In this document: positions 343 to 7,371 of the stretch, piece by piece
Layout of the letters: each line of letters begins with the position of its first letter
Numbering within the stretch: position 1 is the stretch's first letter
NCBI GenBank assembly: GCA_964486505.1
Contig: CAZAMC010000001.1
Span: 26,748 to 90,747, forward strand
Source: an uncultured Gammaproteobacteria bacterium
Lineage (GTDB): Bacteria > Patescibacteriota > Patescibacteriia > PEXW01
Reading direction: 5' to 3'
DNA: 64,000 bases
The notes under the pieces: model-generated
The model's database searches: none
What the model was told of the DNA's origin: nothing
The model's input: the letters and a program-made list of their open reading frames with translations, nothing else
Translations under genes and position numbers: made by a program

Positions 343-2574
343 ATGAGCACCCGACGAACTGGCGATATTCCCGATGAAAACATCCTCGACCTGCGCGCTC
401 AGCCGCAGGAAGACCCCCATGGGCTAAAACCAAAGCGGGGGAAGAAGCAACACGTGGATTTCCTCTCGCTGGTAGAAGAAGGTGAAGAGCGAGTAACCGA
501 AAAAGTTCACAGCTTTTTTCGGCGTCGGGAGAAGCCACAATCAACAGTTGCACCAGTTGAAGTACCGACCATTGTTGAAACGGCGGCACCGCCGCCCTCA
601 CCGCGCTCCGCATCTCTACCAAATCGAAAGGTGCCCTTTGGGGCGGCGATTCGTTTTGCCGTTTTACTCCTCCTCCTGACGGCGGGGGTTGTTGGTGCCC
701 GCACGCTCGGTAATGTGCAACGTGCGAAGGCTGACGTTTTAGGAACGTCGGCCGAAGCCTTGCAACGCGTCTTGGCTGCTGGCACTGCCGCGCAGGATTT
801 GCAGTTCAACACTTCTGCCGATGAGCTGCAGGCAGCGCAGCAAGCATTCGCTACTGCTGAACAGCAACTCCTGGATGTGGCTGGGTCGCTTTCCAGCCTG
901 CCCGGCGCAGGCAAAGTTCGCCGCGCGCAAGCGTTGCTGGAAGCCGGGCAAGTGGTCACGCAAGCAGCGGCCAAACTGGCGCATGGCGCTCAGGCTTTGG
1001 CCGACGAAGGTGACGGTCTGCCCCTGCTGCGTATCGTCGAGCAATTCCGCACAAGCCTTGCTCCGGCAGCGGTTGACTTGGCTCGTGCAGCAGAGCTCCT
1101 GCAGGAAGTCCAACCAGCGGATATTCCAGAGACGTACCGCGATGCCTTTACAGCTATGCAAGCGCAACTGCCTAGCTTGGAGCAGCAGTTCCGACGGTTG
1201 GAACGGGTGGGCAGTTTCTTGGAGCAGTTTTTAGCCGTTGATGGCACGCCGAAGCGCTACCTCTTCCTTTTTCAGAATTCCAACGAACTGCGGCCTACCG
1301 GTGGCTTCCTTGGGAGCATGGCGGTTGTGGATGTTTCCGGCGGCGCCATTGCGAAAGTAGAGATCCCCTCAGGCGGCATCTACGACATTGCGGGTCAAAC
1401 CGGCTTGCGCTACGTGGCGCCCGAACCCATGCAGCTGGTGCAAGCGAACTGGAACCTGCAGGATGCAAACTGGTTTCCAGATTTTCCCACCTCCGCCCAG
1501 AAGGTGCTGGCATTCTACGAGAGTGCGGGCGAGCCGTCCGTTGATGGCGTAGTTGCATTTACGCCCGCGGTTTTGGAATCGTTTTTGCGGCTCACCGGAC
1601 CGGTTGAAGTGCCCGAGGTCGGGGAGACGTTCACTGCCGAGACCTTTACTACGAAGTTACAAATCCTCATAAAAGAAGCAGAGAAGAAGGATTACACGAA
1701 ACCCAAGCTGGTGCTGGGGTACTTAGCGCCAAAGATTCTTTCGCGGGCGCTTAGCCTAGAGCGCGCGCAGCTCTGGGAGATGTTGGGGAAGTTGCAGGAG
1801 CATTTGGTTAGCCGTGACATTCAGCTGTACTTCACCGATGCCCAGGCACAGGCCACAGTAGCTGACTTGGGGTGGACGGGCGCCCTGCAGACATCGCCGC
1901 GCGATTTCCTCCACGTGAATCGGACCAACCTGGGCGGCGGTAAAACTGATGGGGCCATTGAAGAAGTTGATAGTCATGAGGTGAGCATTGCTCCCGATGG
2001 AACGGTTACCGCCACGCTCACGATAATTCGTAAACACAATGGCCTTGTCGGCGATAAGTTTACCGGGGATCGGAATGTGAGCTACCTGCGTGCGTACGTC
2101 CCGCAGGGGAGTGAGCTCTTGAGTGCGTCGGGATTTGAGCGGATTGACCCCAAGCGGTTTCGGGCGCCCTCGCCCGACCGCGTGCCCGATCCTGATCTTG
2201 TGGCGCTGGACGCGGGCGCAATCGTTGATGCCACATCGGGGACGCGCGTGAGTCAGGAAGGGGGGCGTACCGTGTTTGGGAACTGGATGGGTGTGGGCCC
2301 GGGTGAAGTAGCAAAGGCAACAATCACGTACCGTTTACCTTTCACGCTGAAGGTGGGAGGGCTGCTAGATCGGTCGGATTCGTACAGCCTGTTAGTGCAA
2401 ATGCAGCCTGGAACGCGCGTCAACTTCTCATCCAAACTTTTCTTCCCTCAGGGTTGGGTAACGTCGTGGACAGGAAGCACGGCGCAGGTGTTCACCCAGG
2501 AGTCCGCCGGCACCTACCGCATGAGCGCAGTGCTGGATCGGGATGCGTACTACGGGATGGTGCTAAAAAAGTAA
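343..2574 (+). CDS. DUF4012-like membrane-anchored protein (single N-terminal TM, large extracytoplasmic domain)
   Basis: 743-aa ORF with an N-terminal hydrophobic segment (FAVLLLLLTAGVVGA). Central motif FLFQNSNELRPTGGFLGSMAVVDVSGG matches the DUF4012 signature recalled from surface-polysaccharide loci. Confidence 0.55.
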   Translation: MSTRRTGDIPDENILDLRAQPQEDPHGLKPKRGKKQHVDFLSLVEEGEERVTEKVHSFFRRREKPQSTVAPVEVPTIVETAAPPPSPRSASLPNRKVPFGAAIRFAVLLLLLTAGVVGARTLGNVQRAKADVLGTSAEALQRVLAAGTAAQDLQFNTSADELQAAQQAFATAEQQLLDVAGSLSSLPGAGKVRRAQALLEAGQVVTQAAAKLAHGAQALADEGDGLPLLRIVEQFRTSLAPAAVDLARAAELLQEVQPADIPETYRDAFTAMQAQLPSLEQQFRRLERVGSFLEQFLAVDGTPKRYLFLFQNSNELRPTGGFLGSMAVVDVSGGAIAKVEIPSGGIYDIAGQTGLRYVAPEPMQLVQANWNLQDANWFPDFPTSAQKVLAFYESAGEPSVDGVVAFTPAVLESFLRLTGPVEVPEVGETFTAETFTTKLQILIKEAEKKDYTKPKLVLGYLAPKILSRALSLERAQLWEMLGKLQEHLVSRDIQLYFTDAQAQATVADLGWTGALQTSPRDFLHVNRTNLGGGKTDGAIEEVDSHEVSIAPDGTVTATLTIIRKHNGLVGDKFTGDRNVSYLRAYVPQGSELLSASGFERIDPKRFRAPSPDRVPDPDLVALDAGAIVDATSGTRVSQEGGRTVFGNWMGVGPGEVAKATITYRLPFTLKVGGLLDRSDSYSLLVQMQPGTRVNFSSKLFFPQGWVTSWTGSTAQVFTQESAGTYRMSAVLDRDAYYGMVLKK

Positions 2575-2697
2575 CGTCATTGCGACCCCCATGAGGTCGT
2601 TGTTCAGAAACCACGAAAGAGCCAGCATAGCCAGCATTTAATAGCGTCAGTAAATGGCTCAGTTGAGCCATTTTGGCTTACCTTAGCCATATTTAGT

Positions 2698-2726
2698 CTT
2701 GACACAGTATGCACAGGCGTGTATAC
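2698..2726 (+). promoter_or_regulatory. Consensus sigma70-type promoter (TTGACA-17 nt-TATACT)
   Basis: Direct read: ttgaca cagtatgcacaggcgtg tatact. No convincing long ORF lies downstream; the repeats and small ORFs follow. Confidence 0.5.
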
Positions 2727-2915
2727 TGCTCCGTTACGTTGAAAATCTAGCATTTCCCCTAGTAGTCCAGTTTGCCGAAAGAGAGAGCGGCCAGCCGGAC
2801 AAGCCCAATGTTGCTATTGGGCGTATCCCAGGTGCTCTCTCGCAGAGGACCTGCGTTTTGTGTGCAGCGATATGGAGGGGGTTGTGCTTACGAAAGTAAG
2901 CGCAAGCGAGATGTG

Positions 2916-3020
2916 AGGGAGCGGTATCGCGTGGGGTTTACTCCACAAAGACACTTAACCTTCGTTGGGGTGCGGGCTTCGGTCCAAAGCACCCTACGTC
3001 TCACCTCCAGATCGTTACGC
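2916..3020. repeat. Copy A of a ~100-nt direct repeat (shared 38-nt identical core ggagcggtatcgcgtggggtttactccacaaagacact)
   Basis: Aligned by eye to copy B at 3075-3185, roughly 85 percent identity. Both end with tcacctccagat. Confidence 0.6.
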
Positions 3021-3074
3021 GCAATCGCCCATGCAATTTGACAATTCTTTCTATCAACTTGGAGGCGAATTTTT

Positions 3075-3185
3075 CGATGGAGCGGTATCGCGTGGGGTTT
3101 ACTCCACAAAGACACTCAACCGTCACTCGGGCGTGGGCTTCGGTCCAAAACGCCTTTCACTCACCTCCAGATTGATGGAAGGAAC
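3075..3185. repeat. Copy B of the ~100-nt direct repeat
   Basis: See copy A. Spacing between copies is about 60 nt. The reading frames differ between copies, which argues against a protein-coding repeat. Confidence 0.6.
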
Positions 3186-3208
3186 ATGATTTTATTCTCG
3201 GAGGATGT

Positions 3209-3415
3209 ATGGCAGTTGTTGAGTTCTTACGGCGTAGTCTGCGGTATCTCTATGGGGCACTGCTTCTTATGACCATTCCGGATGAATGGTTTCACGCAGA
3301 GATGGTAGTGCAGGGGATATCCCAACCGAGTATCTGGCGTTCGCGTCAGGATTACATGGGTGGAGCACTACTCTACCGCGCATCGTTTACAAGGGCGTTG
3401 CATTACTTTCAGTAA
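3209..3415 (+). CDS. Hypothetical small protein (68 aa)
   Basis: Strong RBS ggagga 5 nt upstream of ATG. No recognisable domain. Confidence 0.2.
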   Translation: MAVVEFLRRSLRYLYGALLLMTIPDEWFHAEMVVQGISQPSIWRSRQDYMGGALLYRASFTRALHYFQ

Positions 3416-3717
3416 TCGCTACCCCAGTTGACCTTTGGGCAAGAGAGTTGGATGAAACCTTCTCTCTTTCTCATCCCGAACGATCTTCATCGAAGGTCAC
3501 TCGAGATGAGCAACATTTCCCTCTTCGATATGGAGGGGTTTGGGTACTGGTGGTGCTAGCATTGCGGCGGGTTTCACTCGCCAAAAACGTTTGGCCCATC
3601 ACCGCGCATCGCAGCTTCGGCTGCAAAGGTGCGCACATGTCCAGGGGTTTCCCCTGGCTCTCTTGCCCACGCCTCCAGATCGAAGAAGGAAAACAAGAAT
3701 CTCAAAGCGAGGTAGAT

Positions 3718-3972
3718 ATGCAGATCATAAGACTGTTTCGTGCGGTAAAGACGACTGTCCGATGGCAATACGAAGAGTACCAGCATCGCAAAAGGCAGCG
3801 AAAAGCGTGGCAAGATACCATCCGCACAATCGACCAGTATATGGCCGAAGCGCGGGAAAAACGCTTCCGGTATTCAGAAGCCGGTCTGACCAAGGCGGTC
3901 CTTCGCATGCACAGGTTTGAATTGAGGTTGGTGTTCGCGAAGGAAATCTGCGTGGCGATGTTGAGTCGCTAA
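3718..3972 (+). CDS. Hypothetical small basic protein (84 aa)
   Basis: RBS gaggt 4 nt upstream of ATG. Helical, Lys/Arg-rich sequence, no recognisable domain. Confidence 0.2.
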   Translation: MQIIRLFRAVKTTVRWQYEEYQHRKRQRKAWQDTIRTIDQYMAEAREKRFRYSEAGLTKAVLRMHRFELRLVFAKEICVAMLSR

Positions 3973-4002
3973 GCAATTACCAAATCCAGTTAAGGGAGGA
4001 AA

Positions 4003-4125
4003 GATGATAGCATTGTTCATTTCAGCAAGCGTGGTACTGGCCATCGTCATTCTATACTCGGTGGTGTACTACCGGGTGATAACTGCGGTCAGTTCGTGCG
4101 TTGCTAAGTTCGCCCCGTTGCGCTA
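4003..4125 (+). CDS. Hypothetical 40-aa hydrophobic peptide (MIALFISASVVLAIVILYSVVYYRVITAVSSCVAKFAPLR)
   Basis: RBS agggagg 5-6 nt upstream of ATG. Single predicted TM helix. Not in the ORF track because it is under 60 aa. Confidence 0.3.
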
Positions 4126-4347
4126 AGCGGGAAGAGGTAAGCAGGAGCCTTTGTTCTTATCCTGCACTTCCCTCAAACGGTTTCACGACGAAGCCGGGTG
4201 AGGGAAGTAAAAAAATTACGGCTGGTGTGGCGAGGGGCCACCGGATGATAGCCCGGAGCGAAGGAACGCTCGGCACGCAAGTGCACAGGGATCGAAACCC
4301 TTCCAGCCTACAAAATGTTCCAGCGGACTCCCTGCCGCTGGTTTACC

Positions 4348-4387
4348 GAGAAGGGCAGCCAATAGTGTTGCTCCGGCTGCCCTTCTC
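4348..4387 (+). promoter_or_regulatory. Perfect 13-bp stem / 14-nt loop hairpin followed by T-rich tract (candidate terminator/attenuator arm)
   Basis: gagaagggcagcc-aatagtgttgctcc-ggctgcccttctc, then tttctc. Its 3' side overlaps the 5' arm of the downstream leader hairpin, so the two structures are mutually exclusive. Confidence 0.4.
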
Positions 4388-4431
4388 TTTCTCCCCCAAG
4401 CGTTGAAATACTTCGACGGGTGGGGGAGAAG
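4383..4431 (+). promoter_or_regulatory. Leader hairpin element copy 1 (ttctccccc...gcgttgaaatacttcgacgggt...gggggagaa), ~35 nt upstream of the ATG of the 4465 gene
   Basis: Outer stem is ttctccc/gggagaa, with an inner 7-bp stem cgttgaa/ttcgacg. The core is 30/31 identical to copy 2 at 4949-4979. Confidence 0.5.
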
Positions 4432-4464
4432 ATAAGAAAAAGTGAACATAAAAGGAGGCAGTGT

Positions 4465-4893
4465 ATGCGGAAGTTTTTGCTGGACGTGCTGATAATTTTC
4501 GCATTTATCGAAGTCTATCTGTTGTTCGTGGTGGCCTCCATTGACATACTGCCCTTTGCGTATGTCAGTGGCGTGACCTTCTCCGGGTATGTGTGGGCAA
4601 GTTTATTCATCGTTGTGACAATTACGGTCCTACGGTGGGCTCGTAAGAAGCTCGCCGTACGTGACGATGAGTATTTCTTGAAGCTCAAGTACCATTCGGA
4701 AACGTGCAGCGTGGCAATTTTTGTCTTGCTTGCCTGGGAAACCGGCAAAGCTTGGTACATCTGCGGATTGCCCGTGGTCCTCCAGTGCCTATGGGGGATC
4801 ATTACATGTGTCGTGGTCACAGCGTTTGTTGGAATAGTGGTCAGGAGCCATCTCAAACAGAGATACCAGCGCATCCTTTCGGCGCAGCGATAA
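4465..4893 (+). CDS. Small polytopic membrane protein (about 4 TM), hypothetical
   Basis: RBS aaggagg 7 nt upstream of ATG 4465. Hydrophobic segments LLDVLIIFAFIEVYLLFVVA, VWASLFIVVTITVL, VAIFVLLAW and LWGIITCVVVTAFVGIVV. Confidence 0.55.
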   Translation: MRKFLLDVLIIFAFIEVYLLFVVASIDILPFAYVSGVTFSGYVWASLFIVVTITVLRWARKKLAVRDDEYFLKLKYHSETCSVAIFVLLAWETGKAWYICGLPVVLQCLWGIITCVVVTAFVGIVVRSHLKQRYQRILSAQR

Positions 4894-4936
4894 AAAGATT
4901 CTTTGGAAAAGTGGCGAGTTGCACCTGCAGCTCGTC

Positions 4937-4979
4937 CTTCTCCCTCACGCGTTGAAACACTTCGACGGGTGGGGGAGAA
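4937..4979 (+). promoter_or_regulatory. Leader hairpin element copy 2, ~32 nt upstream of the ATG of the 5011 gene
   Basis: ccttctccctcacgcgttgaaacacttcgacgggtgggggagaa has the same nested hairpin as copy 1. Confidence 0.5.
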
Positions 4980-5010
4980 ACACAACAGAACCCACTATCA
5001 AGGAGGATAC

Positions 5011-5433
5011 ATGCAAGGATACCGGCATGTTTTCGAAGGATCACTCTTCATGCTTGGGTGCTTCACTGGGGTGACCTGTGTCATCCTGCTCATGAACCCC
5101 AGTGTGGACGCGCTGCAATTCGTGTGGCAGTACGGCCGTTTCCCGTTTGGCATTGTCATCGCTGCTCTCTACCTAGGAGCGCGAGGTATAGCCTGTACAC
5201 GGACGGAGTTTATCTCGTACAGTCGGGTTGTACTCTTCGTCATCGGGGGGCTGTTCACACTCTTCGGTGTGATTAGCACCGTGGGGAACCTCGTCGGCGA
5301 CGGTACCCAGGATCAAACACTGAATACAGCGTCGGTACTCGCGGTCGGAGCAGCAATGCTTACTGTCAGCTGGTTAACCCGGCGCATTGCCGGCACTTCC
5401 TGCTGGCCACAGGTAAAATCAATGCTCTCGTAG
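5011..5433 (+). CDS. Small polytopic membrane protein (about 4 TM), hypothetical
   Basis: RBS aggagga 5 nt upstream of ATG 5011. Hydrophobic helices throughout. Confidence 0.55.
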   Translation: MQGYRHVFEGSLFMLGCFTGVTCVILLMNPSVDALQFVWQYGRFPFGIVIAALYLGARGIACTRTEFISYSRVVLFVIGGLFTLFGVISTVGNLVGDGTQDQTLNTASVLAVGAAMLTVSWLTRRIAGTSCWPQVKSMLS

Positions 5434-5728
5434 GTCATTGAGGAAGGTGAGTGACATAGGATTGTCGCTCGCCTCTCTCCCAGAGTCCCGCAGTGCGGGA
5501 TTGCGGGAGGGGCTTGCAACCGTAAGGCACGGGCCTATACTCGAGGCGCCTCCTCTGCCCCCGCCCACCGGATACCTTCCTACGATCTCAGGTTTGAAGA
5601 AATCCACTAGGACTCTCTCCCTGCTGGATAGACGTGAACCCGGGTATTAGTCGCACGGTATCGGTGGGCAAGGACAGAGGGGAAAGAGAGAGCGAAAGCA
5701 CCACGCTTGATAAAAGCGTGGTTTTTTC
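5434..5728 (+). ncRNA. Candidate structured leader/cis-regulatory RNA or sRNA ending in an intrinsic terminator immediately upstream of murJ
   Basis: No credible ORF in the region. GC-rich paired segments include ctcccagagtcccgcagtgcgggattgcgggagg. It ends in the terminator at 5700-5728. Confidence 0.3.
5700..5728 (+). terminator. Rho-independent terminator (9-bp stem accacgctt / aagcgtggt, loop gataa, then TTTTTT)
   Basis: Direct read. It lies 18 nt before the murJ ATG (5746) and inside the TTG-started ORF of the track, so it forces the later start. Confidence 0.6.
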
Positions 5729-5745
5729 GTATTCTGCATCCACCT

Positions 5746-7371
5746 ATGTGGACGAAACTCTGGACAAAACTCTCCACCACTATCCTTGGCGGAGCCATCG
5801 TTATTGGCTTTACGGGCATCATTAGCCGGTTCCTGGGGTTGCTCCGTGACCGGCTTCTGGCCAGTGAGTTTGGCGGTAGCGGTGCGCTCGACCCGTACTT
5901 CGCTGCATTTAAGCTACCCGACTTCATCTTTAACGTCCTCGTCCTGGGGGCGCTTTCGTCTTCGTTCATTCCAGTTTTTGTTCAGTACCTGAAGAAAGAA
6001 GAAGGTGGCCTCACACGAGATAGCGAAGCGTGGCGCATTGCGAACTCTGTGCTCAATCTCTTGCTCATCGTTCTCATTGGACTCGGCATTCTCTTCTTCG
6101 CTTTTGCCAACCAGCTCGTCCCCCTCATCGCCCCGGGCTTTTCCGGAGAGCAATTGGAAACGACAATCCACCTAAGCCGTATCATGTTGGTGGCAATTAT
6201 TTTCTTTGGCGCGAGCAATATTGTTTCGGCAATCCTTAACTCCTTCAAGCGCTTCTTCGCGTTCGCGCTAGCGCCGGTTCTCTACAACCTCGGCATCATC
6301 TTGGGCATTGTGGTCTTTGTCCCGAAGTGGGGGCTTGTCGGGCTTGCTTACGGTGTGGTTGTGGGCGCCTTTGCGCACCTGGTCATACAGCTACCAGGCG
6401 TCTTCCGAGTGGGCTTTCGGTACCAACGCATTCTGGATCTGAAGCACGCGGGCGTGAGGCAAATTGGCAAGCTCATGTTACCGCGAACATTTGGTTTGGC
6501 GGTTAATCAAATTGACCAGCTGGTGAGCACCATCATTGCCTCGGGCCTTGCTGCTGGGAGCCTGACGCAATTCAACTTTGCGAATAACCTCCAGAATTTT
6601 CCAATTAATGTGTTTGGCGTTTCTCTGGCCATTGCGGTGTTCCCAGCATTTTCCGAAGCGTATGCGGCAAAAGATATGCAGGCTTTTGTCGTACACTTTT
6701 CTCGAACCGTTCGCCGCTTGTTGGTTGTCATGATCCCGGCCTCGATCCTGCTTCTCATTCTGCGGGCGCAGATTGTGCGGGTGGTCGTGGGCGCACAGGC
6801 TTTTGACTGGGACGCCACCTACCAGACAGCCCAAGTGCTGGGCTACTTCACTCTTTCCATTTTTGCTCAGGCGCTCATTCCCATCCTGGCACGGTCGTTC
6901 TACGCTCTGCACGATACGGCAACTCCGGTGAAGGTTGGCATTGTGGCTGTTGCGGTTGACATTGCCGCCGCCCTCAGCCTGGCGCCGCGGTATGGGGTCA
7001 TTGGTCTAGCGCTCGCTTTTTCCATTTCCAGTTTGGTAAACATGCTGAGCCTCTACATTATTCTTCGGCGCCGCATAGGGGACTTGGACGATGCACGCAT
7101 TTCTCGCACGACCCTAAAAATTGTGCTTGCCTCGTTGGTGGCAGGCGGGGTGGCGTGGTTGGTACTGCGCTTTGCCGCGCTCGGTGTTGATATGCGCTCG
7201 CTCGTTGGCATCTTCTTGCAAGGTTTCGTTGCGGGGTGTGCCGGAATTTTTGCCTTCCTCGTTGCGGCCTCGATCTTGCGGGTTGAAGAGGTGCAAGTTC
7301 TGCATAGCTGGTGGAGACGGGTCGTGGCATTCCTTCGCAATGGCTCGCGTAACGGGACCGTTCAGCCATGA
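5746..7371 (+). CDS. murJ: Lipid II flippase MurJ (MviN)
   Basis: FAAFKLPDFIFNVLVLGALSSSFIPVF is the MurJ N-terminal signature. The protein has about 14 TM segments, and the C-terminal region is also typical. Start is placed at the first ATG after the terminator. Confidence 0.85.
   Translation: MWTKLWTKLSTTILGGAIVIGFTGIISRFLGLLRDRLLASEFGGSGALDPYFAAFKLPDFIFNVLVLGALSSSFIPVFVQYLKKEEGGLTRDSEAWRIANSVLNLLLIVLIGLGILFFAFANQLVPLIAPGFSGEQLETTIHLSRIMLVAIIFFGASNIVSAILNSFKRFFAFALAPVLYNLGIILGIVVFVPKWGLVGLAYGVVVGAFAHLVIQLPGVFRVGFRYQRILDLKHAGVRQIGKLMLPRTFGLAVNQIDQLVSTIIASGLAAGSLTQFNFANNLQNFPINVFGVSLAIAVFPAFSEAYAAKDMQAFVVHFSRTVRRLLVVMIPASILLLILRAQIVRVVVGAQAFDWDATYQTAQVLGYFTLSIFAQALIPILARSFYALHDTATPVKVGIVAVAVDIAAALSLAPRYGVIGLALAFSISSLVNMLSLYIILRRRIGDLDDARISRTTLKIVLASLVAGGVAWLVLRFAALGVDMRSLVGIFLQGFVAGCAGIFAFLVAASILRVEEVQVLHSWWRRVVAFLRNGSRNGTVQP

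Follow-up and report, generated by a model that had tools for sequence, protein, structure and literature searches.

Two kinds of described RNA elements are among those closest to the subject of this study. The stems cut by RNase III, in the flanks of 16S and 23S rRNA and at the R sites of the phage T7 early genes, are duplexes of about 21 base pairs (bp) around a folded RNA or between cistrons; they have one internal mismatch and recur along a polycistronic RNA. Riboswitches and other leaders that sequester a Shine-Dalgarno site form conserved multi-stem domains in the 5' untranslated region (UTR), and tandem arrangements are known for the glycine and some other riboswitches. The genomes of Patescibacteria, or candidate phyla radiation (CPR) bacteria, are small and tightly packed, and we know of almost nothing on RNA regulation in these organisms. 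Here we analyse a 64-kb stretch of DNA from a Patescibacteria (CPR) genome, referred to as the window, in which an island of small open reading frames (ORFs) contains three copies of a repeated element that we call type A. These repeats are a real, strongly supported family of structured RNAs; the family is new, and no Rfam model matches it.

The original prediction, made from the letters of the window, had drawn attention to a low-coding island with two direct repeats of about 100 nucleotides (nt). The island is indeed the largest stretch of the window with small ORFs only; ORFs of at least 150 residues cover 89% of the window. Both repeats are real (2915-2993 and 3076-3154 are 87% identical over 79 nt, with the tail CTCACCTCCAGAT common to both), and they turned out to belong to a set of three paralogues of one structured RNA: a 'related cctccagatcg', placed originally at about 3667, is present at 3672-3682 and is the 3' terminus of a third copy, complete but diverged. 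The motif CCTCCAGAT occurs three times in the window, each time within the island, against a chance expectation of 0.39. The island and the three copies are:

2575-5730, plus strand: island, from promoter to terminator, with small ORFs and structured RNA modules
2858-3024, plus strand: type-A copy 1, closing helix 2858-2878/3004-3024, covariance model score 141 bits
3045-3184, plus strand: type-A copy 2, closing helix 3045-3065/3164-3184 with a conserved C.A mismatch, 121 bits
3516-3692, plus strand: type-A copy 3, diverged, closing helix 3516-3536/3672-3692, extra 3' hairpin, 84 bits

When the two repeats were aligned with the region around 3672, the differences between copies were compensatory in the predicted stems. 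The folding energies, expressed as z-scores relative to shuffled sequences, were -6.5, -3.3 and -3.9 for copies 1, 2 and 3, respectively.

Syntenic loci (designated L001, L002, etc.) were collected from relatives with DUF4012 proteins that are 54-65% identical to that of the window. The gene order is kept in these relatives: a DUF4012 gene is followed by 3.5-5 kb of small plus-strand ORFs and then by murJ-lepA, and the island always lies between them, within a small Patescibacteria clade. A MAFFT alignment of 15 type-A copies yielded a consensus of 37 pairs, 17 of which show compensatory changes, and a covariance model was built from it. The model gave 20 strong matches (57-142 bits). Each lies within this island and on the strand of the genes, and those in the window are the three copies only; the repeat is thus found in relatives at the same locus. 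In the alignment of these 20 sequences, which was fitted to the model and so favours the structure but with which the independent MAFFT alignment agrees, 98.8% of the cells were paired. Compensatory changes were present in 23 of the 37 pairs, a number matched by none of 500 shuffles, and pairing of the core fell to 40-52% when the partners were slid as a control. Because a larger share of cells is paired on the sense than on the antisense strand (98.8 versus 88.8%; 78 G.U cells versus 4 A.C cells), the type-A fold is a structure of the transcript.

The core of type A is a three-way junction of the stems P2 and P3 inside a closing helix. P2, a long hairpin (GGAGCGGUAUCGCG...CAAAGACACUUAACC), contains three internal loops that are conserved (GGAGCGGUAUCGCG ... 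CAAAGACACYUAACC) as well as a G.U pair that never varies; its tip is variable and in one relative is extended by an insertion of 40 nt. P3 is a hairpin of the form C(UUCG)G in which an AAA bulge is conserved. The conserved loops of the core are GGAGCGGUAUCGCG and CAAAGACAC. Extension of the flanks revealed the 21-bp helix, so that the purine-rich 'tail' after CCUCCAGAU is in fact the 3' strand of the closing helix. Each of the 26 elements, which come from the window and 11 relatives (12 loci), has this ungapped helix of about 21 bp, variants that lack the core included. Its cells are paired for 89.7%, as compared to 36-50% when the partners are slid, and 11 of the 21 pairs show compensatory changes. 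The inner five pairs, GGAGG:CCUCC, are nearly invariant (24-26 of the 26 elements for each pair), step 7 or 8 is a conserved mismatch, and the outer 13 pairs are wholly different between copy types, with pairing nonetheless retained. Copy 1 has in addition a hairpin (P1a) and a 7-bp helix (P1b); for copy 2, 20 of 24 helix positions are paired. Orthologues of copy 2 were found in L002, L006, L010 and L019, and of copy 3 in L027, L001, L002 and L020, with compensatory changes in P2 between copy 3 and L027. The second element of L001, L004, L013 and L020 retains the helix and carries an unrelated hairpin in place of the junction core. The L010 element (with core) and the L013 element (plain hairpin) stand before homologous ORFs. 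As a separate observation, the hairpin-only variants of L001 (11171-11295) and L013 (1116-1238, minus strand) consist of degenerate short repeats (TACGGC/TATAGC/TACGC), which make a long imperfect hairpin within the conserved closing helix.

The type-A copies are always co-oriented with the genes. The three short ORFs with Shine-Dalgarno sites listed by the original prediction are all present:

3209-3415, plus strand: 68-residue ORF, GGAGG Shine-Dalgarno site, orphan
3718-3972, plus strand: gene of an 84-residue basic protein, homologue P0122 with 73% identity
4004-4126, plus strand: gene of a 40-residue peptide with a single transmembrane segment, own Shine-Dalgarno site, 31 nt past the 84-residue gene

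The 68-residue ORF starts 32 nt after copy 2 and the 84-residue ORF 33 nt after copy 3. Over all loci, the distance from the end of the model match to the start codon of a small ORF was 27-41 nt in 13 cases (65 nt in L023), and no terminator lies between. Exceptions are copy 1 where it is directly trailed by copy 2, and copy 2 of L006, at 219 nt from the next ORF. In most of the minimum-energy folds computed without the 5' strand of the helix, CCUCC was paired with the Shine-Dalgarno site that follows.

We tentatively favour a reading in which type A is a modular, cis-acting leader and processing element. Each copy would act in cis as the leader of the ORF that starts about 30-40 nt downstream. 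Closure of the helix would be the operative event, which sequesters CCUCC and leaves the Shine-Dalgarno site of the ORF itself free; with the 5' strand unavailable, the anti-Shine-Dalgarno-like CCUCC would mask that site. The type-A helix has the size of an RNase III substrate (20-22 bp, two helical turns, mostly regular) and could for that reason be cut by RNase III, by which the polycistronic RNA would be split into separately stable units. The junction core would be an accessory that tunes helix closure, most likely via a protein or its own folding rather than by sensing a metabolite. A cis-acting leader best explains the fixed short distance to the ORF starts, the lack of intervening terminators, the invariant GGAGG:CCUCC and the replaceable core. 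That the core can be swapped, that L010 and L013 have homologous ORFs behind either form, and that a second family of hairpins (type B, see below) takes the same position point to the helix rather than the core as the shared functional part.

Several points weigh against the leader reading. Transcription, cleavage and translational gating, like everything else past the structure, we infer from the structure itself, its conservation, strand and position, and the potential for alternative pairing. The folds in which CCUCC pairs with the Shine-Dalgarno site count for little, since complementarity alone predicts such pairing. RNase III has a low sequence specificity, which leaves the invariant CCUCCAGAU unexplained, even where its partner varies. 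The highly conserved unpaired nucleotides of the core and its invariant G.U pair are typical of a specific binding site, and the core may thus be more than an accessory. Finally, copy 1 has no ORF of its own where copy 2 follows, and L006 copy 2 lies 219 nt from the next ORF.

In an alternative reading, the cores, above all that of copy 1 behind the strong regulated promoter, would be the actual products, excised as stable small RNAs with a trans-acting or structural role; the helices would serve as processing stems, as around 16S and 23S rRNA, and the ORFs would be read-through passengers. Copy 1 is the best conserved piece of the island (132-142 bits in nine loci, 115 bits in L006), is always the first module after the promoter and often lacks an ORF of its own; the helix is as long as an RNase III substrate, and the conserved internal loops and invariant G.U suggest a specific partner. 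Against this, copies 2 and 3 are tied to ORF starts at a narrow distance, as are the hairpin-only variants, the core can be missing before a homologous ORF, no terminator follows any copy, and no target or partner was found. We consider such small RNAs unlikely, if the least so among the alternatives. The 'cluster of small RNAs' of the original prediction does hold in substance, in that the island contains covarying structured-RNA paralogues plus further conserved RNA elements. A rather unlikely reading is that the junction core represents a new class of sensing RNA, of the riboswitch or factor-binding type, which gates cassettes of small membrane proteins, with the modules framing cassette swapping. 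Such a switch would be built around an internal Shine-Dalgarno:anti-Shine-Dalgarno duplex and be repeated along one operon of an episymbiotic CPR bacterium.

The nucleotide conservation of the island is concentrated in its non-coding modules. The segment of promoter, leader and copy 1 has 72-84% nucleotide identity in most relatives and 66% in L006; in L023 only its first 140 nt align. For the same relatives, DUF4012 shows 54-65% identity as a protein and the island ORFs are not alignable; the type-A RNAs are far better conserved than the ORFs of the island. The number of type-A copies ranges from one to four per locus. A decayed pseudogene, a dead mobile element or a chance repeat could account for the lack of a long ORF and the presence of repeats, and the remnant of a mobile or repeat element had been among the original proposals. 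That idea is refuted, by the very criterion that the original prediction had set, through conservation in 11 or more relatives, always at this locus, and further by the compensatory base changes and the conserved promoter, and by the fact that the modules are more conserved than the neighbouring coding sequence; we give it next to no probability.

The distribution of type A is narrow. The exact core pattern was searched in one genome for each of 185,579 species and gave 10 matches, of which three were real, all in CPR metagenome-assembled genomes (MAGs), once per genome and at this locus. The other seven (in Pseudomonas, Streptomyces, Bacteroides and others) lack the remainder of the motif, and the single match in viral contigs is attributed to chance. 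BLASTN of 2690-3200 against 50,697 phage records gave no match. Rfam 15 (4227 models, including all riboswitch, ribozyme, 6S, signal recognition particle (SRP), transfer-messenger RNA (tmRNA) and RNase P families) gave no match in the whole 64-kb window at gathering thresholds; at E<=10, only chance matches to microRNAs were obtained over 2500-5100 and nothing at all over 2855-3190. A full-text literature search retrieved no description of the type-A RNA. The element was not found in the more distant relatives L024, L025 and L026. Two of these (L024 9390-9620 and L025 2390-2560; DUF4012 54-55% identical) have another GC-rich, structured-looking stretch after the DUF4012 gene, and the two stretches share the motif ...GCGCCGTCGCG...TTTTRTCGTGGATAACT.

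Several features of type A are those expected of a new class of metabolite or ion riboswitch, partly in tandem, in which a ligand bound in the junction would stabilise the helix and turn on downstream translation. The multi-stem junction with conserved unpaired nucleotides and covarying stems is aptamer-like, the position is in the 5' UTR, the copies are partly arranged in tandem, and a potential relay of Shine-Dalgarno, anti-Shine-Dalgarno and anti-anti-Shine-Dalgarno sequences is built in. On the other hand, the downstream genes are unrelated orphans that share no function or pathway, two to four copies occur in one operon, a plain hairpin replaces the core before a homologous gene, and only three true matches were found among the 185,579 species representatives. 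A riboswitch is therefore distinctly unlikely in our view. Bacterial hammerhead, twister and pistol ribozymes include many copies in a context such as this one, and a new self-cleaving class that cuts the polycistronic transcript between cistrons would agree with several co-oriented copies between the small genes of one transcription unit and with a three-way junction that has an invariant core. The lack of likeness to known ribozyme models, even at E<=10, the core-less hairpin variants in the same positions and the absence of any mark of a cleavage site make such a ribozyme improbable.

The island is a single plus-strand unit, from a near-consensus promoter to a terminator:

2656-2669, no strand assigned: palindrome GGCTCAGTTGAGCC, 14 bp, just upstream of the -35 box
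2675-2688, no strand assigned: palindrome GGCTTACCTTAGCC, 14 bp, just upstream of the -35 box
2699-2727, plus strand: sigma-70-type promoter, TTGACA at 2699-2704, spacer of 17 nt, TATACT at 2722-2727, 11 of 12 consensus positions
2734-2857, plus strand: 5' leader, conserved, with a hairpin, a variable hairpin and a terminator-like hairpin
5700-5729, plus strand: strong intrinsic terminator that ends the island, stem of nine pairs followed by TTTTTT

The promoter TTGACA-17-TATACT, described originally as perfect, deviates from consensus at one position and lies one nucleotide downstream of where it had been placed; both hexamers and their spacing are kept in 11 related loci. The two GGCTAAnnTTAGCC palindromes are 19 bp apart, a spacing that is the same in 11 loci, and no further copy is present in the 64-kb window; the pair presumably forms binding sites for a transcription factor. 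About 125 nt of the leader are kept in 11 loci along with the promoter and the palindromes. The leader contains the hairpin GCCG[AAAGAGAGAG]CGGC at 2774-2791 and, at 2829-2853, a hairpin that resembles a terminator, ahead of a U-run (a terminator-like site was flagged at 2841-2855). In the consensus fold from an alignment of 10 loci, 6 of the 13 predicted pairs show compensatory changes, and GAGAGAGC (2781-2788) could pair alternatively with GCUCUCUC (2834-2841). Because of the covarying terminator-like hairpin and this alternative pairing, the leader may attenuate transcription and is a possible attenuator.

Directly upstream of the island, at 343-2574, lies the gene of the DUF4012 protein, whose closest named relatives are from 'Patescibacteria group' and Kerfeldbacteria MAGs. 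From its stop codon up to murJ (mechanically listed from 5707) and lepA (7368) only small ORFs are found. The 4-nt gene overlaps reported for the window are real in the case of murJ/lepA (7368-7371). The listed TTG start of murJ (5707) falls within the terminator hairpin, and the true start is probably the ATG at about 5747 (MWTKLW...). A 228-residue ORF (3286-3972) is a mechanical artefact that reads through the third RNA copy.

The 68-residue ORF has no homologue other than itself among 5.8 billion proteins, and its position in L027, the closest relative, is occupied by unrelated sequence. For the 84-residue ORF, the substitutions relative to its one homologue were 18/14/39 by codon position, and for the 40-residue peptide the C-terminal 27 residues are kept in the same relative, L027, the difference in N-terminal length being in frame. 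The 84- and 40-residue ORFs thus evolve as genuine genes do. AlphaFold2 predicts the 84-residue protein as a helical hairpin (mean predicted confidence, pLDDT, 95), which gave non-significant matches only in the PDB (ferritin/Dps, ClpC, ESCRT-III and Rop among them). An exhaustive HMMER search with this protein in 1.84 billion representatives returned only itself, and a link to an 85-residue ORF of L004 was not significant. Five small proteins were compared with Pfam, NCBIfam, PADLOC and PHROGs, and none belonged to a family. The ORFs between the modules mostly encode small membrane proteins and are, with few exceptions, unalignable between genomes; the ORF content differs completely even between two relatives with murJ genes that are 82% identical. 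One variable ORF, in L002 (13752-14225), encodes a type IV pilin-like protein (weak N_methyl match; MFGNSKGFTLIELV...), which hints that the small proteins of the island could be components of the surface or envelope.

A type I toxin-antitoxin-like module, in which the 40-residue hydrophobic peptide would be a toxin controlled by a cis or antisense RNA, had also been put forward. The conserved peptide has one transmembrane segment, its Shine-Dalgarno site is strong, and heavily structured RNA is nearby. Yet no promoter-like site is present on the minus strand in 2400-5900, the structure is that of the sense strand, and PADLOC and the other family libraries gave no match. The structured RNAs precede other ORFs and not the 40-residue gene, which simply follows the 84-residue gene, and the same modules stand before many unrelated ORFs, most of which are not toxin-like. 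This proposal is not supported and retains very little probability.

Other structured elements are found in the island, several of them belonging to the type-B hairpin family (17-20 bp, CCUUCCCUCA on one strand and UGAGGGAAGG on the other). These hairpins precede other island ORFs at a distance similar to that of type A and number two to four per island in the relatives:

3470-3510, plus strand: hairpin CUCAUC...GAUGAG after a pyrimidine tract, just 5' of type-A copy 3, read from the sequence
4166-4208, plus strand: type-B copy 1 (CUUCCCUCA...UGAGGGAAG), inverted repeat I3, with compensatory changes
4220-4309, plus strand: multi-branched element 'M', closing stem GGCUGG/CCAGCC and five small hairpins
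4348-4387, plus strand: strong hairpin (GAGAAGGGCAGCC/GGCUGCCCUUCUC) followed by UUUCU, in the minimum-energy fold of 4127-4464
4389-4430, plus strand: type-B copy 2, arms of 19 nt and a purine-rich tail, inverted repeat I5, conserved in relatives
4465-4893, plus strand: gene of a 142-residue membrane protein, after type-B copy 2 and a Shine-Dalgarno site
4935-4979, plus strand: type-B copy 3, before the gene at 5008-5433
5008-5433, plus strand: gene after type-B copy 3

Type-B copies 2 and 3 form the direct repeat D3 (91% identical) and were both recovered by a pattern search. The region 3455-3540 is kept in L002, L020, L013 and L027, and the region 4365-4446 in L002 and L004. The fold of 4127-4464 has a z-score of -6.9; its hairpin at 4348-4387 is possibly a weak internal terminator or a 3' stabiliser. 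Element M always follows a type-B hairpin, and the consensus fold of type-B copy 1 and M, taken together, has 10 compensatory pairs. One of its hairpins is T-loop-like (GGGAUCGAAACCC). Element M is about 100% identical in L027 and 80-86% in L001 and L020, and between the window and L027 it is more conserved than the adjacent coding sequence. No Rfam family matches M, and M is not a tRNA: ARAGORN detected neither tRNA nor tmRNA in the window. Its positions in the relatives are:

L001 13348-13516: element M
L020 13934-14108: element M
L004 12535-12695: element M
L027 925-1071: element M

At the end of the island, a promoter-like site (TTGCAA-16-TATACT, 5514-5541) is followed by a long imperfect hairpin of about 140 nt (5549-5690) and the terminator at 5700-5729. 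The segment 5514-5733 is 97% identical between L001 and L002, as against 82% for their murJ genes, and several relatives share 85-92% identity with the window over it. Rfam contains no match to this segment, which looks like an independent, highly conserved small-RNA gene of about 180 nt. In relatives, RNase P RNA (Rfam RF00010, 135-186 bits) is encoded ahead of a block of glycosyltransferase genes and some 5.5 kb upstream of DUF4012, a position that falls outside the window:

L001 2118-2600: RNase P RNA
L002 2071-2602: RNase P RNA
L004 2111-2609: RNase P RNA
L006 2132-2610: RNase P RNA
L020 1201-1576: RNase P RNA

Several further identities were considered for the repeats and rejected. RNase P RNA, SRP RNA, 6S RNA and tmRNA were discarded for the leader plus copy 1, given the separate RNase P RNA of the relatives and the lack of a match to the others. 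A peptide-coding function of the repeats (MERYRVGF...) was dismissed, since they have no conserved ATG and differ from copy to copy in ways that compensate RNA pairing and not coding. A tandem interspersed guide RNA (TIGR) or CRISPR-like array is at odds with units of 120-190 nt, the absence of a spacer architecture and the absence of an associated protein. For a diversity-generating retroelement, differences between copies 1 and 2 should be adenine-specific; they are not, being largely compensatory in stems, and no reverse transcriptase is present in the island.

The wholesale exchange of ORFs raises the question of DNA-level sites, that is, modules that act as attC-like recombination sites or as homology anchors for the exchange of small ORFs. 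Integron cassette arrays, for instance those with the Vibrio cholerae repeats, likewise have one promoter and many small, variable, co-oriented ORFs; between the ORFs lie imperfect palindromes (70-190 nt) that are conserved, one mismatch included, apart from a variable interior. The island shares this layout, with a one-orientation array behind a strong promoter and modules that are imperfect palindromes of this kind, kept between genomes whose ORF content is wholly different at 82% murJ identity. In contrast to integrons, four relatives have no integrase or other recombinase among the genes annotated around the island (about 8 kb on the upstream side, and as far as lepA downstream); these genes encode glycosyltransferases, DUF4012, MurJ and LepA. 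The ends of the modules, (T)ATCAAC...ATTGAT(A) or CGATA...AGATCG, do not fit the attC core sites RYYYAAC/GTTRRRY. Moreover, attC sites fold on the bottom strand, whereas type A pairs better on the sense strand (78 G.U versus 4 A.C cells), and a junction core with conserved loops would have no role in recombination. We regard such sites as highly improbable. Overall, the island lacks the defining properties of an integron, a type I toxin-antitoxin system, a diversity-generating retroelement, a tRNA and a known ribozyme.

About 3 kb of a compact CPR genome is thus devoted to a strongly promoted, apparently factor-controlled unit, in which the non-coding modules are under much stronger selection than the small, mostly membrane proteins that are swapped wholesale between relatives. 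If the modules are leaders or processing elements, they would provide a compact, modular post-transcriptional control of hypervariable surface proteins, possibly linked to interaction with a host; a ligand-binding or self-cleaving core would define a new RNA class. The covariance model, the coordinates and the 26 aligned examples make the question directly testable.

Among known systems, type A would be best compared to an RNase III stem combined with a Shine-Dalgarno-sequestering leader. With the RNase III stems it has in common the duplex of about 21 bp around a folded RNA, the single internal mismatch and the repetition along a polycistronic unit. Unlike them, it has an inner GGAGG:CCUCCAGAU of invariant sequence, a constancy that RNase III does not call for, and it encloses a junction domain of 100 nt rather than rRNA; its cleavage is a prediction. 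As in the Shine-Dalgarno-sequestering leaders, a conserved multi-stem domain occupies the 5' UTR, and the CCUCC of the closing helix could otherwise mask the downstream Shine-Dalgarno site. Unlike the riboswitches among these, type A precedes unrelated genes, its putative sensor domain can be replaced by a hairpin, and no Rfam riboswitch matches it. The 5' stabilisers of Firmicutes, such as the cryIIIA STAB-SD and the ermC and aprE leaders, likewise have a GGAGG that resembles a Shine-Dalgarno site, a stable 5' structure, or both, a good way upstream of the ribosome-binding site proper. In type A, for which a stabilising role would be putative, the GGAGG is paired to an internal CCUCC and is not free for the ribosome.

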